Assembly: GCA_963817955.1 (NCBI GenBank)
Contig: CAWFQK010000001.1
Span: 21,675 to 85,674, forward strand
From: an uncultured Gemmatimonadaceae bacterium
GTDB taxonomy: Bacteria; Gemmatimonadota; Gemmatimonadetes; Gemmatimonadales; Gemmatimonadaceae
Length of the DNA stretch: 64,000 bases
Reading direction: 5' to 3'
The notes beneath the pieces are model-generated. The model did no database searches and had not been told where the DNA came from. It worked only from the letters and a program-made list of their open reading frames with translations. Positions 25,729-32,240 of this stretch are shown piece after piece (the first letter of the stretch is position 1; every line of letters starts with the position of its first letter). The position numbers and the translations under genes were made by a program.

Positions 25729-25896
25729 TAAGTATCGTTTCGTTCACAATTCACGTTGCGACGGGCGAGAAATGTACCTCGCGTCGTCACACTCCGTTAG
25801 ATGGCGACGTAAGAACCGTAAACGGTCGTGCCGCCGCCGGCTTCGCTTGCTGCGAGTCCGTCCGCGAGATATGCTTGACGTCCCTTGTCGAACACG

Positions 25897-26562
25897 ATGC
25901 TGACGATCACTCCGTCCTCCGACTCCGCCGCGGTACCACTCGCCGGTTCCCATTCGACGACCGACCAGTCGCCGTTTGTGTTCATCGGAGAACGCCTCTG
26001 GCTGGATTTCGTAAACTGTGAATACGGGCTGCGTCGCCGGGACGCGCTGAATGATTTCGAGACGCTCGTGCGCTGGCTCGAGGTCGCCGGGGTGCTCGAC
26101 GTGGATCGCGCCAGTGGAATCCGCCGGAGGGCCGAGCAGCAGCCGGCTGGTGCAGGAGTGGCGCTCATCGAAGCACGGCGCGTGCGCACCGCCCTTCGGT
26201 CGCTCGCCGAGCGCGGCCCAATGAGCGAGCGGATGCGCAACGAAGGACTCGTCGAGATCAATCGGGTGCTGGGCCGTAGCGCGGGTACGCGCCGCGTCGA
26301 CCTGCGCCAGGACGGCACGTTCATCCGCTCCTTCGTACCGGTGGGCGATGCGTTCGCCGGTCTCATGATCCCCATCGTCGAGTCGGCCGCCGACGCACTC
26401 ATTCTCGGCGAGCTGTCGCGCGTACACATCTGTGCGGACCCACGCTGTCAACGCGTGTTCTTCGATGGCACCAAGAATGGACGCCGCCGCTGGTGCGACA
26501 TGGCCACCTGTGGCAACCGCGCCAAGGCGGCACGCCACCGGGAGAAGCTGAAGTCGCAGTGA
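25897..26562 (+). CDS. CGNR zinc-finger (ABATE domain) protein
   Basis: C-terminal C..RCQRVFFDGTKNGRRRWCDMATCGNRAKAARHR is the CGNR Zn-finger signature. Confidence 0.8.
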   Translation: MLTITPSSDSAAVPLAGSHSTTDQSPFVFIGERLWLDFVNCEYGLRRRDALNDFETLVRWLEVAGVLDVDRASGIRRRAEQQPAGAGVALIEARRVRTALRSLAERGPMSERMRNEGLVEINRVLGRSAGTRRVDLRQDGTFIRSFVPVGDAFAGLMIPIVESAADALILGELSRVHICADPRCQRVFFDGTKNGRRRWCDMATCGNRAKAARHREKLKSQ

Positions 26563-27074
26563 GCCCGGTTGTCGAAGTCCTGCGGACCTACCTCGAGCTG
26601 CGCTCGCTCGATCAACTCCACGGTACGCCCGCCCGCGACGACATCCGATTCGTGCAGCGCGTTGGCATTTCCGTAACGGAATACCGGCGGCTCTATCTGC
26701 TGGTCGGCGACCAGTGGTATTGGCACGATCGCAATCGCTGGTCAGACGATAAGCTCGCGGCGTATCTGGCTGATCCCAGTGTCTCTGTCTGGGAGGCGCT
26801 GGTCGGCGACGACAGTGCTGGCTATTTCGAGATTCAGCGCGACAGCGACGACTCGGCGGAGATCGCGTACTTCGGCCTTGCGAGCGAGTTCATTGGCCGC
26901 GGACTCGGCAAGGTCATGCTGGCACGGGCCGTTGAAGAGGCATTCGCGCTGGGCGTGCCGCGCGTCTGGCTGCACACGTGTACACTCGACTCTCCGCACG
27001 CACTACCGAACTACCTGGCGCGAGGGTTCGAGCCGTTCAGGCAGGAGACGTTCGTGGTGCAGCTTCCGGAGTGA
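26559..27074 (+). CDS. GNAT family N-acetyltransferase
   Basis: GTG overlaps the previous stop (GTGA). Acetyl-CoA loop EFIGRGLGKVML and C-terminal YLARGFEPF. Confidence 0.8.
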   Translation: MSPVVEVLRTYLELRSLDQLHGTPARDDIRFVQRVGISVTEYRRLYLLVGDQWYWHDRNRWSDDKLAAYLADPSVSVWEALVGDDSAGYFEIQRDSDDSAEIAYFGLASEFIGRGLGKVMLARAVEEAFALGVPRVWLHTCTLDSPHALPNYLARGFEPFRQETFVVQLPE

Positions 27075-27201
27075 TCGGGGGCAGCGGTTGGGGCTACGCA
27101 ACATCCAATGTGCGACTTCACATGTCGTCGGTGCTACGCTGCAAGCGTCGCGGTTGTTTTGCGCGCTTCCGCAGCGTATAGTGACCACCTCTTGCCGTTA
27201 G

Positions 27202-27666
27202 ATGTCACCAGATGATCGTGCGATGGCAGAAACTCCATTCGGTTTCAATCCCCAATCGGACGCGGGCTCCGGCGACGCGCTCTTGCAGCTTCGTCGCGAG
27301 GATGTCGCCGCCCTCGCCGCGGTCTACCTCCGGGATAGTCGTGCCCCGCGCCAATGGGCGGGAGTTGCTGCCGGTCTTGGCGGCCTTGCTCTTGGTCCGC
27401 TCCTCATGACGCTGGGCGCGCATCTGGGATGGCCGGCCACCCTTGAGCCGTATTTCTTCTTTGGCGGCTGGGCGATCATGCTGACTTGCGGAGTAGCCGT
27501 CTGGCGGCGGGAACGGGTGCTACGCTTGCGCTACCGGTTTCAGTGCCCGTCGTGCGATACCGCACTTCTCAACGGCATCCGCGACCAAGCCGGGCTCGCA
27601 CGTGTTGAGTTGATCATCGCCACAAGCACGTGCCCGCATTGTGGTTCACGGATTCTCGCGCCGTGA
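27202..27666 (+). CDS. hypothetical membrane protein with C-terminal zinc-ribbon
   Basis: Two TM helices, then CPSC...CPHC. The ATG lies inside a GTTAGATG core-like motif. Confidence 0.5.
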   Translation: MSPDDRAMAETPFGFNPQSDAGSGDALLQLRREDVAALAAVYLRDSRAPRQWAGVAAGLGGLALGPLLMTLGAHLGWPATLEPYFFFGGWAIMLTCGVAVWRRERVLRLRYRFQCPSCDTALLNGIRDQAGLARVELIIATSTCPHCGSRILAP

Positions 27667-27669
27667 CAT

Positions 27670-27686
27670 CTAACGAGGATGTAGAA
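27670..27686 (+). repeat. conserved post-stop motif CTAACGAGGATGTAGAA (copy 1 of 3)
   Basis: Starts 4 nt after the stop at 27666. GATGTAGAAT (27678-27687) pairs with ATTCTACATC (27820-27829). Confidence 0.9.
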
Positions 27687-27915
27687 TTGGTCCCATCGCT
27701 AGTTCTGCGATCGCGATGTTGAAAACTCGACGTCGCCCGAAGCTACAGGATCGACGATCCTCACCTCGGGAATGATCTGACGACAGCCAAATTCGGAGGT
27801 CGCGGAATGGTGGGGACATATTCTACATCGTCAACATACGCTGAAGCCGACCGCGTTAGACAACACTCCAAGCATCGCGACAACGAAGGGACTGCCGGGC
27901 CGAGGCCCTCTCTCG

Positions 27916-28368
27916 ATGACCGTTGAGCGCATTGAAGGCGAGGCGATCCAAGCGCTGCTCCCCCACCGCTATCCGTTCCTTCTCGTTGACCGCATCGATG
28001 TCATCGAGCGCGGCCGGCATGTCGTCGGATCGAAACAACTCTCGGCTGGGGAGTGGTGGTGCGCGGGAGCAGCGCAGACTTCCATCTTTCCATTCGGTTT
28101 GGTCGTCGAGGCGCTCGCGCAGACGAGCGGCGCAATCGTCCGGGATCTAACCGATGGCGAGGGCGGCGCCATTGCTTACTTCATGGGCGCGAACCGCGTT
28201 CGGCTACGCCGACCTGCGCATCCGGGCGAGGAACTCACGATGACCGTTGTCCTTCGTCAGTGGCGTCGCGGACTCTGTCGCGCATATGGTGAGGCAACCG
28301 TTCATGGCCACCTCGTGGCGGCCGCGACACTGACAACGATGGTGCGCGTGTTGTCCGACGAAGGCTGA
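27916..28368 (+). CDS. FabZ/FabA-like beta-hydroxyacyl-ACP dehydratase (hotdog fold)
   Basis: LLPHRYPFLLVDRI signature, then VVEALAQTSG. About 150 aa. Confidence 0.8.
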   Translation: MTVERIEGEAIQALLPHRYPFLLVDRIDVIERGRHVVGSKQLSAGEWWCAGAAQTSIFPFGLVVEALAQTSGAIVRDLTDGEGGAIAYFMGANRVRLRRPAHPGEELTMTVVLRQWRRGLCRAYGEATVHGHLVAAATLTTMVRVLSDEG

Positions 28369-28387
28369 ACTTGTCGAGCGATTTATG

Positions 28388-28440
28388 GAAGCTCGCTACG
28401 CTCGCATTCAATTGAGCTCGCTTGCGAGTTAGCTCGGGCG
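28388..28440 (+). repeat. ~53-nt GCTCGC-rich repeat ending GTTAGCTCGGGC (copy a)
   Basis: GAAGCTCGCTACGCTCGCATTCAATTGAGCTCGCTTGCGAGTTAGCTCGGGCG aligns with 31038-31090. Confidence 0.85.
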
Positions 28441-29397
28441 TCAGGCACCTACCAATACTTCAATCGCGATTGGAGATCCTGTTGCGTCGAGGTCGTACGG
28501 CCTTGCTCGTCCTGCTCTGGACTGCCGTACAGTTGGGCTGTCGGGCGGGCCACCTAAACAACAGCAGCGGTCTGCCGGCTGGCGAGGCGCCATCCTACCG
28601 CATCGACAGCGGGTCGGTGCGCGTCAATGGCACGCGTCTCTTCTACGAGGCAGCCGGGAGCGGATCGGTCGTCGTCCTCCTTCACGGCGGGAACCTCGAC
28701 CGCCGCATGTGGGACCCGCAGTTCCTGCCGCTCGCGCGCGAGCACCGGGTCATCCGCTACGACCTGCGCGGCTACGGGAAGTCGGGACCGGCGGACGCGC
28801 CCTTCCAGCCACGAAGACCTGCGCGCCCTGCTCGAAGCCCTCGGCGTCGTGCGCGCGTCCCTCGTCGGCCTCTCGGGTGGTGGGCGCATCGCCATCGACT
28901 TCGCGCTGGCCCACCCGGAGATGGTGAATCGCCTGGTGCTGGCCGCGCCCGGGCTCAGCGGCTGGCAGTACTCCACGAGTGACACGGCGTATTTCCCGGA
29001 GGCACGGCGCGCGCGCGACCGCGGCGACGCGGCGGGCCTAGGTCTCGCATGGCTCGGGAGCGCCTATCTGCTGCCCGCGATGGAGCACCCCGAGCTGGTG
29101 TGGCGGCTCCGGGAAATGGCGGCCGACAACGGCGGGAACTGGATGGGCCTATTGAAGCACGGCGACCTCGAGCGCGTCGCCGACCCGTCTGCGCTCCATC
29201 AGACGGCCATGCTTCGGGCGCCGACCCTGCTCGTGGTCGGCACCCGGGACGTGCCAGACATTCAGGCCATCGCCGACACCCTGACGGCCCACGTCCCCGG
29301 TTTGCGGCGCGAGACCTTCGTCGGAGTCGGGCACCTCGTGAACATGGAGCAGCCCGAGCGCTTCACGACGCTGGTCCTTGACTTCCTGCGCCGGTAG
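28422..29397 (+). pseudogene. alpha/beta hydrolase (lipoprotein-type N-terminus) disrupted by a +1 frameshift near 28805
   Basis: Frame A reads ...[19 protein letters not shown]...[16 protein letters not shown]. Frame B continues [29 protein letters not shown]...HLVNMEQPERF. One extra C in the CCTTCC run joins them. Confidence 0.7.
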
Positions 29398-29593
29398 CTG
29401 CCTCCCAGGAGGCGTCATCTGTCACGTCCGTTAGAAAAGACTCGTTGAGGGGCACGATCAATAACACGGCCCCTCGCTGTTACATCTCCCGCCACCATTC
29501 CCACGTCGAGCGTCTGGAGCACGCGGGCCGGCATGGTCCGCACGCGCCTTGATTTGACTCGTTCGCAGCTGAACTCGGGCGCGAGCTAGCCGC

Positions 29594-29632
29594 ATAGTAA
29601 CGCTTGACGTTATGGTCGCGACGCGTTACTAT
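29594..29632 (+). promoter_or_regulatory. sigma-70-type promoter TTGACG-N17-TACTAT embedded in a 10-bp perfect inverted repeat (putative HigA operator)
   Basis: -35 at 29604-29609, -10 at 29627-29632. Inverted repeat ATAGTAACGC (29594-29603) / GCGTTACTAT (29623-29632). The higB GTG lies 6 nt after the -10. Confidence 0.6.
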
Positions 29633-29637
29633 TCGTT

Positions 29638-29919
29638 GTGATCAAGAGCTTCGCCGCCCACGACACCGAACGCCTCTTTGGACGGGAGCCCGTCCGGCGC
29701 TATCCGGCCGAGCTTCAGCGCACCATGCTCCGCAAACTCATTGTCGTGGACGCGGCGGAGCAGCTCGAGGATCTCCGGAGCCCGCCGGGGAATCGCCTGG
29801 AAAAGCTCCACGGCGACCGGGCCGGCCAGCACAGCATTCGCATCAATGACCAATGGCGGATCTGCTTCCGCTGGAAGGATGGCAATGCGTACGACGTCGA
29901 GGTCGTTGATTACCACTGA
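29638..29919 (+). CDS. higB: type II toxin HigB (RelE/ParE superfamily killer protein)
   Basis: MIKSF..HDTERLF...LEDLRSPPGNRLEKLHGDRAGQHSIRINDQWRICFRW.DGNAYDVEVVDYH is the canonical HigB pattern. GTG start. Confidence 0.85.
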   Translation: MIKSFAAHDTERLFGREPVRRYPAELQRTMLRKLIVVDAAEQLEDLRSPPGNRLEKLHGDRAGQHSIRINDQWRICFRWKDGNAYDVEVVDYH

Positions 29920-29926
29920 GGCCCAC

Positions 29927-30232
29927 ATGGCGCACCGCAAACTGACTCCCATCCATCCCGGCGAGGTACTGGCTGCCGACTTCCTCGAGCCGCTGGGCTT
30001 GTCGCAGTATCGCTTGGCCAAGGATATCAGCGTGCCCGCGCGACGTGTCAACGAGATCGTGCATGGCACGCGGGCGATCAGCGCCGACACCGCGCTGCGG
30101 CTCGCGCGGTATTTTGGCACGAGCGATCGCTTCTGGCTGAACCTCCAAGCCCGATATGATCTTGAAGTCGAACGCGATCACCTGGGTGCCCGCCTCGAAA
30201 AGGAAGTTCGAGTGTTCGACCGAGCTGGCTAG
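29927..30232 (+). CDS. higA: type II antitoxin HigA (XRE-family HTH)
   Basis: IHPGEVLAADFLEPLGLSQYRLAKDISVPARRVNEIVHGTRAISADTALRLARYFGTSDRFWLNLQ. Confidence 0.9.
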   Translation: MAHRKLTPIHPGEVLAADFLEPLGLSQYRLAKDISVPARRVNEIVHGTRAISADTALRLARYFGTSDRFWLNLQARYDLEVERDHLGARLEKEVRVFDRAG

Positions 30233-30236
30233 CGAG

Positions 30237-30255
30237 CTAACGAGGATGTAGGAAA
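30237..30255 (+). repeat. conserved post-stop motif CTAACGAGGATGTAGGAAA (copy 2 of 3)
   Basis: Starts 5 nt after the higA stop. Preceded by GAG, giving GAGCTAAC, the exact complement of GTTAGCTC at 28428. Confidence 0.9.
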
Positions 30256-30385
30256 GGCCGTTCGGAGGTGATGGCGCGCGGCCGCGGAGATGCCGTCGGA
30301 CGTCGGAACCTTCGGCGGCTACGGTTCGGTGTGGGAGGGTTCTAATCCGCGCCGGGCGGGCATTAAGTTGAAGTCGGAGGGTCGA

Positions 30386-30583
30386 ATGAAATACAAAGTT
30401 GCGGTGCGCCACGACGAGGAAGGCTACAGTGTCTCCGTCCCAGGCTTGCCCGGTTGCTGGTCGCAAGGCGCCACCGAAGCGGAAGCCGTGGACAACATCG
30501 CCGATGCGATTCGGGAATACCTGGCCGCGCGCGACGAGATGATCGGCGGCAGTGACGTGCGCGAGATCGAGGTTGCCGTCTAG
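30386..30583 (+). CDS. hicB: type II antitoxin HicB family (UPF0150)
   Basis: GGAGG RBS at 30376-30380. YKVAVRHDEEGYSVSVPGLPGCWSQGATEAEAVDNIADAIREYL. Confidence 0.8.
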   Translation: MKYKVAVRHDEEGYSVSVPGLPGCWSQGATEAEAVDNIADAIREYLAARDEMIGGSDVREIEVAV

Positions 30584-30586
30584 CGC

Positions 30587-30799
30587 GTGGGAAAGATTCC
30601 CGGCGTCAATCATCTCCACGCCATCCGTGCGCTCGAGAAAGCGGGCTTCCGCATCGTTCGGGAAGGCAAGCATACCGTGATGTCGGACGGTGAGCGTATC
30701 CTCACTATCCCTCGGCACAACCCCGTCAATGCCTTCACGATGGGCGGTATCGTACGCGATGCCGGGTTGACCGCCGACGAGTTTCGCAAGCTCCTCTGA
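30587..30799 (+). CDS. hicA: type II toxin HicA (mRNA interferase)
   Basis: GTG start 3 nt after the hicB stop. HAIRALEKAGFRIVREGKHTVMS...TIPRHNPVNAFTMGGIVRDAGLTADEF. Confidence 0.85.
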   Translation: MGKIPGVNHLHAIRALEKAGFRIVREGKHTVMSDGERILTIPRHNPVNAFTMGGIVRDAGLTADEFRKLL

Positions 30800-30807
30800 G
30801 CGGCCGG

Positions 30808-30827
30808 CTAACGAGGATGTAGGAAAA
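30808..30827 (+). repeat. conserved post-stop motif CTAACGAGGATGTAGGAAAA (copy 3 of 3)
   Basis: Starts 9 nt after the hicA stop. Confidence 0.9.
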
Positions 30828-30894
30828 CCCCAATTGGCCGGCGAGCCGACCGCGCCGCGTCGTCGATGCCCGGCGGCGGCGGAACTGGTCACGC

Positions 30895-31037
30895 GTGTGG
30901 CGGCGCCCGGAGGGCAAGACGCTGGAGTTCAAGCGCGATCTCTCCTCCCCTGACGACGCCTTGAAGACCCTAGTCGCCTCCGCGAATACGGCCGGCGGCA
31001 CGTTGCTCGTGGGAGGGGTGCATGCGAGCCAACTTCC
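30895..31037 (+). pseudogene. AlbA_2 (Schlafen-type putative DNA-binding) domain fragment, truncated
   Basis: PEGKTLEFKRDLSSPDDALKTLVASANTAGGTLLVGG matches only the first ~45 residues of AlbA_2 domains. The similarity stops where the 53-nt repeat begins. Confidence 0.5.
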
Positions 31038-31090
31038 GGAGCTCGCTGCGCTCGCATTTTGTTGGATGTGCTCGCAGGCTAGCTCGGGCA
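31038..31090 (+). repeat. ~53-nt GCTCGC-rich repeat ending GGCTAGCTCGGGC (copy b)
   Basis: GGAGCTCGCTGCGCTCGCATTTTGTTGGATGTGCTCGCAGGCTAGCTCGGGCA aligns with 28388-28440. Confidence 0.85.
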
Positions 31091-31188
31091 TTTGGCGGAC
31101 AACAGCCACGCACGACAGGTCCGACCAGCCGAGGGCGCCGAGCCCCGCGCCGTGGCCTCGGGTTCGACCCGGCATTATACCTCCAAGC

Positions 31189-31407
31189 ATGACAAAGCTG
31201 ATGGAACAAGCGCTGCGCGCCGTCGCCGAGCTGCCCGAGGCTGAGCAGGACGCGCTTGCCGTTTCGATTCTAGCCGAAGTGAAGGGCGAGGAGGCGTGGG
31301 ATCGCCAGTTTCAGGACTCCGCGCGGCAGCTCGAGCACCTAGCCGACGAGGCGCTCAGCGAACACGGCGAAGGTCGCTCCACGCCGCTCGACCCTGACGC
31401 GCTGTAA
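31189..31407 (+). CDS. putative orphan antitoxin-like protein (addiction-module-component style)
   Basis: MTKLMEQALRAVAELPEAEQDALAVSILAEV...EALSEHGEGRSTPLDPDAL resembles small helical antitoxins that precede RelE/ParE toxins. No toxin ORF follows and there is no clear RBS. Confidence 0.4.
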   Translation: MTKLMEQALRAVAELPEAEQDALAVSILAEVKGEEAWDRQFQDSARQLEHLADEALSEHGEGRSTPLDPDAL

Positions 31408-31501
31408 CGCCCGATCGGTCCGCTCATCTCGCACTCGCGGACGACCACGCGGTTTCGTGAGCGGACTACGACCGTTTGCTGGCGACCTTGCGCTAGGTTC
31501 G

Positions 31502-31612
31502 GAATCACGAGCCGCTCGCGGGCAAACGGAACCGCTCGCCGGCAAGCACGAATCCCTCGCGGTCAAAGACGAATCCTCGCAAGCGACACGGGACCTCGCG
31601 GCCGTGTCGGAG
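31502..31612. repeat. tandem ~21-bp repeats GAAyCnCTCGCnGnCAAnnAC (4-5 units)
   Basis: Units at 31529, 31550, 31571 and 31592, plus a 27-nt variant at 31502. Confidence 0.85.
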
Positions 31613-31783
31613 GTTTCACGGCTCGTCTAGCTCGGATGCCGGCGTGCTCACGATCAAGGGCTCGCCGTGCCGGAGGGATCCAGCCGTTCAGGCAGCAGAC
31701 CCTCCCCGTAAAGCGCCGTAAAGGCAGAACGACTCACCTACACGCCCCCCAGCCTCCCAAATCCCCCCCGCAGCCCGCCGAAA

Positions 31784-32203
31784 AACACCCGTGGTCTTGC
31801 GGATTGCAAACGTAACCCGCCGGAACGCCCCCGTAGACCAGCTGATCGCGCCCGTAGGTCGCCGGAACACAAAAGTATCGCTAAAATCTGCTCCGATATG
31901 ACGCAAATCGACACAAGGATGCGCCCGGAACGTCCCCGTGGTGCGCCTGTTCGTGCCCGTAGGTCGCCTGTGCGTGCCCGTGGTGCGCCTGTTCGTGCCC
32001 GTAGGTCGCCTGATCGACTCCGTCATGTTGCAAATTGCGAAAAGTATGGGCCGAATCGAGGTGAGGGAGCAACTGTTCGCCCCCGTGGGGCGACTGAACG
32101 GGGTGCACGGGCACCTGTTCGACCCTATCGAGTACCGAGGCGAGGCGAGCTTGCCGCGGAACAAGGTGCAGGCCCGCCTGATCAGCCCTATTGGGCAGCT
32201 GGC
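31784..32203. repeat. phased 21-bp repeat array (about 20 unit lengths; 4 near-perfect core units at 31931-32014)
   Basis: Core units alternate CGTsCCCGTGGTGCGCCTGTT and CGTGCCCGTAGGTCGCCTGTG. Degenerate CCCGTRG copies at 31788, 31830, 31851 and 32082 all sit at multiples of 21 bp from the core. Confidence 0.9.
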
Positions 32204-32240
32204 AGTCGTTCCAGACCGACTATCCTCGAACTAAGCGCGA

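Follow-up and report, generated by a model that had tools for sequence, protein, structure and literature searches.

A probable decaying integron gene-cassette array without a nearby integrase in an uncultured Gemmatimonadaceae bacterium

The sedentary chromosomal integrons, represented by the superintegron of Vibrio cholerae, are characterized by attC sites that resemble one another within the array and by toxin-antitoxin (TA) cassettes located among cassettes of unknown function. The recombination of attC sites occurs at a conserved GTT triplet, and the TA cassettes stabilise integron arrays. The clusters of attC sites lacking integron-integrases (CALINs) constitute a category described in 2016, and integrons have been reported in the phylum Gemmatimonadota (PMC8618304). 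We have analysed a stretch of 64,000 nucleotides (referred to below as the window; G+C content of about 64%) from the contig CAWFQK010000001.1 (assembly GCA_963817955.1, at least 559 kb) of an uncultured Gemmatimonadaceae bacterium. The region comprised between 27.1 and 31.1 kb of this window is very probably a decaying gene-cassette array without a nearby integrase, in other words a fossil CALIN.

Like the CALINs (PMC8618304), this chromosomal locus contains small, co-oriented cassettes of unrelated functions, attC sites and no nearby intI gene, and its content is variable between relatives. In contrast to them, only one attC site is detectable here with a covariance model, the others being mutated in the core, deleted or interrupted by a miniature inverted-repeat transposable element (MITE), which corresponds to a late stage of decay. 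The similarity with the Vibrio cholerae superintegron lies on one hand in the mutual resemblance of the attC sites of the window (they have the spacer CTCGGGC in common, and 31040-31096 resembles 28390-28446) and on the other hand in the TA cassettes interspersed in the array. The locus differs from this superintegron by the absence of visible intI, attI or Pc in the window, by its small size (about 6 units) and by its degenerate cores. It is located in the family Gemmatimonadaceae; for this phylum, reports of integrons exist, with few descriptions.

The attC sites were searched for with two covariance models, R1, built from 12 MITE-cleared sites of other loci and none of the window, with the R''/R' pairs added, and R2, a broader model built from 34 sites of other loci; the window was scanned with both, filters off. 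The alignment of the 12 sites displays an L''/L' stem of 15 pairs with two extrahelical bases on the 5' arm and compensatory changes at 10 pairs. In the alignment of the 34 sites, 87.5% of the cells are paired against 69.8% in shuffles (26-51% in slid controls), and changes on both sides are observed in 17 of the 22 pairs. The loci searched with R1 were those carrying the repeat described below or a cassette homologue, and the syntenic loci of relatives; 17 loci gave 34 sites (26-73 bits) with this model, and the sites form same-strand arrays with a spacing of 0.5-1.3 kb. The initial annotation, which had proposed an integron-type cassette array without an integrase in view, had asked for a search with an attC model. 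Our own models find, as the sole significant match in the 64 kb, the segment 28353-28446 on the plus strand, over the full model length (43.6 bits, E=1.7e-10 with R1; 44.2 bits, E=6.6e-10 with R2). The next best matches, located elsewhere in the window, reach 14 bits (R1) and 17 bits (R2), and the minus strand of the same segment gives 7.4 bits. This attC keeps the whole stem and the extrahelical bases. Its R'' box GTCCGAC (28353-28359) is included in the last codons of a FabA-like open reading frame (ORF), and its R' box is GTCAGGC (28440-28446), where the conserved GTT has become GTC. Since the site ends at this GTCAGGC, the sequence GTTAGCT at 28428, previously taken for a core, is located inside the L' arm.

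Two units of the array have homologues in other cassette arrays. Cassette A (27198-27855, plus strand) is composed of a Zn-ribbon-like membrane ORF of 154 amino acids (27202-27666; sub-threshold Pfam matches only) and of a damaged attC. Only 10 homologues of this ORF were recovered among 5.8 billion proteins. One of them, P0241, is 90% identical and is encoded on four soil contigs (L044-L047) with differing neighbours, where it is bracketed on both sides by attC matches of 47-63 bits. The homology between the window and these contigs begins exactly at GTTAGATGTCACC (27197); upstream of this point, the four contigs carry three different attC sites. A perfect 13-bp inverted repeat (27196-27208 / 27663-27675) links the start of cassette A to its own R'' box; the complementarity of the first bases of the cassette to its own R'' region is 13/13, against 10/12 in the second unit. 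This second unit, cassette B (27856-28440, plus strand), is composed of the FabA/FabZ-like hotdog ORF (27916-28368) and of the attC at 28353-28446. Its homologue P0121 (92% identity with the FabA-like ORF) is found on the soil contigs L039-41. A homologous attC (25.7 bits), whose GTTAGGC is canonical, lies behind it, and the attC in front of it is a different one. The homology starts at G|TTAG(A/C)CAACAC (27855) and ends at R'. At the sequence level, this comparison shows that the Zn-ribbon and FabA-like units are genuine mobile cassettes, that is, discrete units that have the G|TT of R' as their limits and occur in more than one array. The homology to soil contigs also establishes GTTAGAT at 27197 and GTTAGAC at 27855, both proposed from the start as cores, as true cassette boundaries. 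A minus-strand array with inverted cassettes was ruled out, because the complete attC gives 44 bits on the plus strand against 7 on the minus strand and the intact homologous attC sites of L044-47 are co-oriented with the ORF.

The attC of cassette A (27668-27861, plus strand) is internally deleted. It keeps the R'' box ATCTAAC (27668-27674), the spacer and the L'' half, ATACG CTGAAGCCGAC (27836-27851), and the R' box GTTAGAC (27855-27861). The order in the window is ATCTAAC, the MITE (27675-27832), then AAC ATACG CTGAAGCCGAC CGC GTTAGAC. The intact homologous attC of L044-47 reads GTGACATCTAAC GAACG CTGCAGCCGAC, loop, GCAGCTGAGC TCAGGC GTTAGGT, which indicates that the site of the window has lost the loop and the L' arm and carries a MITE in its R'' box. 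Another homologue of the Zn-ribbon ORF (58% identity) belongs to a large environmental cassette array (L048; ENA ERZ26871208 contig_260240, 13.7 kb), in which about 28 small ORFs, most of them on one strand, are accompanied by six or more attC model matches. The attC of this homologue and that of the window are cut at one and the same point, right after the sequence GAAGCCGAC.

Besides the structurally complete attC, three to four more sites are present as fragments. A decayed attC is located at 29486-29587 (plus strand), whose 3' end CGCAGCTGAACTCGGGC GCGAG (29564-29585) fits the family consensus, with a core changed from GTT to GCG (29581). The 22-mer consensus of attC 3' ends, established from other loci, has its only window match at 29564-29585, with 3 mismatches of which two make GCG from GTT; a match of this quality was reached by 0/100 shuffles. 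This segment is also the best match of the position weight matrix of L' plus spacer in the whole window, with a covariance score of the whole site of only 10 bits. By local similarity, the segment 31027-31096 (plus strand) is an attC remnant homologous to 28390-28446, the counterpart of the 3' two-thirds of the site at 28353. It contains an R''-like box AGCCAAC, the L' arm and spacer GCAGGCTAGC TCGGGC, and ATTTGGC at the position of R' (ATT at 31090); 18 of the 19 nucleotides of 31040-31058 are identical to 28390-28408, and the covariance models give no significant match for 31027-31096. The CTCGGGC spacer of the attC family is common to the sites 28353-28446, 29564-29585 and 31027-31096. Finally, an imperfect palindrome is located at 27104-27203 (plus strand), upstream of the first verified cassette; its components are the R''-like sequence ATCCAAT (27104-27110), the R' box GTTAGAT (27197-27203) and, between them, an inner stem (about 27135-27178). 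The spacer 27103-27203 had been described as attC-like: the inner stem with its CC bulge is found in the fold, whereas neither R1 nor R2 matches it on either strand. The bulge is on the 3' arm, while the extrahelical bases of the modelled attC sites are on the 5' arm. Judged from this architecture, the palindrome may be a decayed attC.

The array thus contains about seven attC positions, namely one complete site with a mutated core, one internally deleted and MITE-split site, two R'' boxes followed by a MITE left end, two 3' remnants with destroyed cores and one unrecognised palindrome. In place of the conserved 5'-AAC / GTT-3', the site 28353-28446 carries GAC / GTC, and GCG and ATT are found at 29581 and 31090, respectively. 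Because these triplets are mutated and arms are missing, we infer that the array is probably no longer able to recombine.

The limits of the variable segment were deduced from synteny. A strain-specific insert of 5.17 kb (27075-32240) separates the stop codons of two convergent genes encoding a GNAT acetyltransferase and a helicase. This insert is absent from three relatives, in which the gap between the two genes is of 82 nt (L036), 23 nt (L037) and 7 nt (L038), and the helicase is 80-84% identical to that of the window. The sources of the helicase homologues of this identity name them Gemmatimonadaceae, which assigns the window to this family. The gene order helicase / GNAT / CGNR/ABATE / yjjX is common to the three relatives (79-81% identity for CGNR, 61-67% for GNAT), and no attC model match was detected in these syntenic loci. 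The content therefore varies while the flanks stay fixed, as had been expected for a cassette array. In the initial annotation, the array started at 25729 and the CGNR and GNAT ORFs were counted as cassettes. As the relatives keep the gene order, the CGNR/ABATE regulator (25885-26562) and the GNAT acetyltransferase (ORF up to 27074), both assigned with Pfam and located in 25885-27074 on the plus strand, are conserved core genes, and the array is restricted to about 27.1-31.1 kb. The motif CCGTTAGATG at 25794, also quoted as a core, is located in the yjjX-CGNR spacer. At this position, GGTTAGATGCC is read in L036 and CGTTAGTCC in L038 (the spacer is shorter in L037); since equivalents exist in these cassette-free relatives, this motif is not an integron site. 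An exact-protein look-up of the yjjX product returned no record.

The segment 27075-31110 contains 8 pentamers GTTAG/CTAAC, whereas the frequency in the remainder of the window predicts 0.74 (about 10-fold, P ~1e-6), and the 18-mer CTAACGAGGATGTAGGAA has 3 copies in the window against 0.01 expected. All the motifs quoted in the initial annotation are present where it placed them; among the cores that it named, several do not qualify as R'/R'' boxes. The three inverse cores noticed after the stop codons at 27666, 30232 and 30799 are real and form this repeated 18-mer. Each of these three stop codons is followed by CTAAC-GAGGATGTAGGAA, in which an R'' box is fused with the terminal sequence of a MITE of about 158 nt. 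The only complete copy of the window (158 nt, 27675-27832, plus strand) was recognised by its terminal inverted repeats GAGGATGTAGAAT / ATTCTACATCGTC, by the 3-bp duplication AAC (27672-27674 and 27833-27835) and by its family of copies; its central sequence is ATCGACGATC. The two other sites, both on the plus strand and identified by exact 18-mer matches, consist of the R''-like box GAGCTAAC followed by about 16-20 nt of MITE left end (30234-30257, 1 nt after the higA stop codon) and of GGCTAAC followed by a MITE left end (30806-30830, 6 nt after the hicA stop codon). The MITE-derived stretches are thus 27675-27832, 30242-30257 and 30813-30830, with only about 20 nt of MITE in the last two; at 30234-30257 the rest of the attC and of the MITE is missing or unrecognisable. 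Solo left ends, where the 18-mer is followed by unrelated sequence as at 30242 and 30813, were also observed in L013/L035 and L018/L030; they are either shortened MITEs or another element with a common end. A possible MITE fragment at 29475-29501 was rejected, its 70% complementarity to 27804-27830 being too weak for a claim.

The scan of public genomes and metagenomes with the 18-mer recovered six contigs of Gemmatimonadota metagenome-assembled genomes (MAGs), one Ectothiorhodospiraceae MAG and one Omnitrophota MAG, as well as numerous contigs from soil and freshwater. Full copies of the MITE (108-168 nt, mostly 157-159 nt) were found in at least 15 other loci, and at least 15 of the full copies measure 142-168 nt. 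Their terminal inverted repeats read GAGGATGTAG(G/A)AA, their centre is conserved (GATCGNCGATC), and they show an apparent 3-bp duplication AAC. The loci with members of the MITE and insertion sequence (IS) family are L002-L004, L006, L009, L011, L012, L014, L017, L019-L021, L023, L025, L028, L031 and L032. Among them, L003, L019 and L023 contain full-length relatives with the same CTAAC flank, a similar terminal repeat and an adjacent transposase that begins with MARYKYIDTNP and matches DUF772, DDE_Tnp_1_6 and the NCBIfam model NF033551 (IS1182). As these full relatives encode an IS1182 transposase, the short elements (terminal repeat GAGGATGTAGRAA) are MITEs of an IS1182-family IS. In about 16 loci, the excision of the MITE and of one AAC restores a canonical attC, composed of R'' YYTAAC, a 4-7-nt spacer, an L'' arm such as TTGGTGCTGAC, a loop, an L' arm such as GCAGCACAAC, a spacer and GTTAGRC. 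Of 19 MITE copies in the other loci, 14 are immediately adjacent to the R' GTT of an attC found by the model, with the 3-bp duplication. The interpretation of the 18-mer as a conserved R''-L'' arm of attC was ruled out by the terminal inverted repeats, the 3-bp duplication, the IS1182-type full relatives and the attC sites restored by excision.

Other elements are known to target such sites. The IS1111-attC insertion sequences and the group IIC-attC introns are known attC-site parasites (PMC3001079, PMC11187229). The MITE/IS family resembles them by its site-specific insertion into attC sites and differs from them in being an IS1182-family DDE transposon with its MITEs, with terminal inverted repeats and a 3-bp AAC/GTT duplication in the R'/R'' core. 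In Staphylococcus, IS1272, another member of the IS1182 family, targets stem-loops and replaces the target stem-loop without duplication (PMC5678879). The element described here shares with it the IS family and the preference for hairpin-forming inverted-repeat targets; in contrast to IS1272, it inserts at a single conserved sequence (CTAAC|G, at the base of the attC stem) and generates a 3-bp duplication. We tentatively propose that these IS1182-family elements and MITEs of about 158 nt could form an undescribed lineage homing to the attC core, which would represent a third class of attC parasite. Full-text literature searches on attC with IS1182 or MITE found no description of such a lineage, which is not a proof of novelty. 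The copies are distributed in Gemmatimonadota, Omnitrophota and the Ectothiorhodospiraceae MAG, and a related IS end is present in a Pseudoalteromonas chromid. In this chromid (pNC201 of Pseudoalteromonas sp. NC201, L050, 103775-112692), an IS1182-like element ends with TTCTACAGGCTC|GTTAGAG, 20 nt before an ORF; attC model matches follow 0.9 and 2 kb downstream. The left part of this element is apparently interrupted by another IS, whose transposase has C-terminal residues that look by eye like those of the IS110 type.

Concerning the integrase, a tblastn search of the whole window with the IntI1 sequence gave no match better than E=3.7. This agrees with the initial annotation, which had seen no tyrosine recombinase in the window; no integron integrase is thus found within about 4 kb of the array, and intI with adjacent attI and Pc, which would define a complete integron, is not present in the window. 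Beside the related arrays, nothing more was found than the C-terminal part of a tyrosine recombinase, at the edge of L021, and weak generic matches in L016 and L026. They are not diagnostic and were not retained as integrases adjoining these arrays. For the assignment to CALINs, the locus offers one full attC (44 bits), one unique 3'-consensus match, one homologous remnant and one internally deleted site, whereas the operational rule demands at least two detected attC sites.

Several observations weigh against the interpretation as a decaying cassette array. Only one attC of the window is significant with the models, and the spacers 27075-27201, 30233-30385 and 30800-30894 give no match. Under the rule of two attC sites, the locus might fail to count as a CALIN, and a standard tool may not call it, because only one attC may be reported. 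The cassette status is shown for two units only; the hydrolase, higBA, hicBA and AlbA_2 units would be cassettes by their context, and the putative start of the hicBA cassette has no complementarity to its own R''-like box. The MITE is located at R'' boxes in the window versus R' in the other loci. Finally, the search for intI covered 64 kb of a 559-kb contig.

Two other explanations were weighed against this evidence. The array could still be functional within an integron, its cassettes being excised and reshuffled by an integrase whose gene lies in another part of the genome. Such activity would be in line with the two canonical R' cores (GTTAGAT 27197 and GTTAGAC 27855), with the stem and extrahelical bases entirely retained in 28353-28446, with the integrons reported in Gemmatimonadota (PMC8618304) and with a window that is a part of a much longer contig. 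We consider it unlikely, in view of the state of the sites themselves: the sole complete attC carries GTC instead of the conserved GTT, the attC between the two canonical cores is devoid of loop and L' and carries a MITE, and of the other sites there remains either a core changed to GCG or ATT or no more than an R'' box. Moreover, no IntI is found within 25 kb on either side.

The alternative of a generic islet of TA and accessory genes, assembled by a non-integron route and in which GTTAG/CTAAC would be a MITE target or due to chance, is very improbable and already largely refuted. TA modules and pseudogenes are indeed common in many types of islands, most spacers fail the attC model, and most of the insert lies between two direct copies of a 28-nt stretch of the GNAT 3' end, which could mark a recombination unrelated to IntI. 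On this hypothesis, however, one would have to accept two units with exact G|TT boundaries common to cassettes of model-verified arrays, an attC of 44 bits in the window, the unique 3'-consensus match at 29564, and a MITE whose target is the attC core itself in at least 14 other loci. The decaying cassette array is hence retained: the central proposal of the initial annotation is upheld by three independent arguments, namely the attC model match, the cassette homologues and the absence of the insert in the relatives.

In the scenario that we favour for this decaying array, an IntI encoded elsewhere, at present or in an ancestor or donor, would have assembled the cassettes, which would have come to the site by secondary-site insertion or by recombination. 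The array would no longer be open to shuffling, as the GTT triplet is mutated in three attC sites (GTC, GCG and ATT), one attC has lost its loop and L' arm, and three R'' boxes are interrupted by the MITE of about 158 nt or its left end. The higBA module, with its own promoter, and the hicBA module would probably help to retain the segment, while the other cargo decays, the hydrolase gene being frameshifted and the AlbA_2 gene truncated.

The ORF identities proposed in the initial annotation are all backed by Pfam (at sub-threshold level only for the Zn-ribbon), except the "orphan antitoxin" at 31189-31407. The latter label was dropped, as this ORF has no match in Pfam or NCBIfam even at E values up to 10. 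Downstream of cassette B, an alpha/beta-hydrolase pseudogene (28470-29397, plus strand) displays Pfam Abhydrolase matches over two frames, the shift of frame being near 28800, and a lipoprotein-type signal; its start was read from the sequence at 28470 or 28482. The higBA module (29595-30232, plus strand) contains higB (29638-29919; Pfam HigB-like_toxin, 3e-20), higA (29927-30232; HTH_3, 3e-9) and a promoter/operator region (29595-29632). The sigma-70-like site TTGACG-17-TACTAT, just upstream of higB, is the only one in the insert, and a higBA module with its own promoter fits the stabilising role of TA cassettes. A perfect palindrome (TAGTAACGC...GCGTTACTA, 29595-29632) overlaps this promoter and is probably the HigA operator. 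A higBA module with 52% identity, followed by an attC of 57.6 bits, is present in the array L002. The hicBA module (30386-30799, plus strand) is composed of hicB (30386-30583; HicB_lk_antitox, 2e-8) and hicA (30587-30799; HicA_toxin, 3e-8). For both modules, the matches are all above the Pfam cut-offs, and the assignment to type II TA modules is made at the level of families. The gene fragment at 30895-31020 (plus strand) encodes the N-terminal part of an AlbA_2 (Schlafen-type) protein (PF04326, 27.9 bits) and covers only positions 1-38 of the 118 of the profile.

In the right part of the insert, a copy of the GNAT 3' end (27022-27049) was found by local alignment at 31673-31700 (plus strand; 25/28 nt identical), with an alignment score of 41 against 22 +/- 2.2 in shuffles (maximum 31). 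This direct repeat encloses most of the insert and suggests a duplication or recombination step in its history, when the array arrived. The last 830 nt or so (31408-32240), beside the helicase stop codon and absent from the relatives, contain no supported ORF. They include two arrays of 21-nt tandem repeats, at 31515-31580 and at 31931-32016; less regular copies are present at 31811-31868 and 32078-32100. In an ORF of the minus strand (31688-32164), which has no family match, these repeats would be read as RPTGTNR heptads. Rfam and tRNA scans of the 64-kb window found nothing.

As integron arrays without integrase are common, and since integrons in Gemmatimonadota and CALINs have already been described (PMC8618304), the locus itself is of a known kind and not surprising. 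Its value is that a single array clearly exemplifies the way in which such arrays die, with core mutations, an attC deletion, a transposon in the recombination boxes, TA modules that are kept and a cargo that becomes pseudogenes, in the Gemmatimonadaceae, a family of a soil phylum in which integrons have hardly been described. The attC-homing IS1182/MITE family is the less expected result and may matter more than the locus. Such a family would bear on the dynamics of integrons and on the annotation of attC sites, because MITE-split sites would probably be missed by attC search tools, and its 18-mer is a handy marker for environmental cassette arrays. If such homing is true, a MITE that splits the R'/R'' boxes could immobilise cassettes and push arrays towards a fossil state such as that of the present locus.

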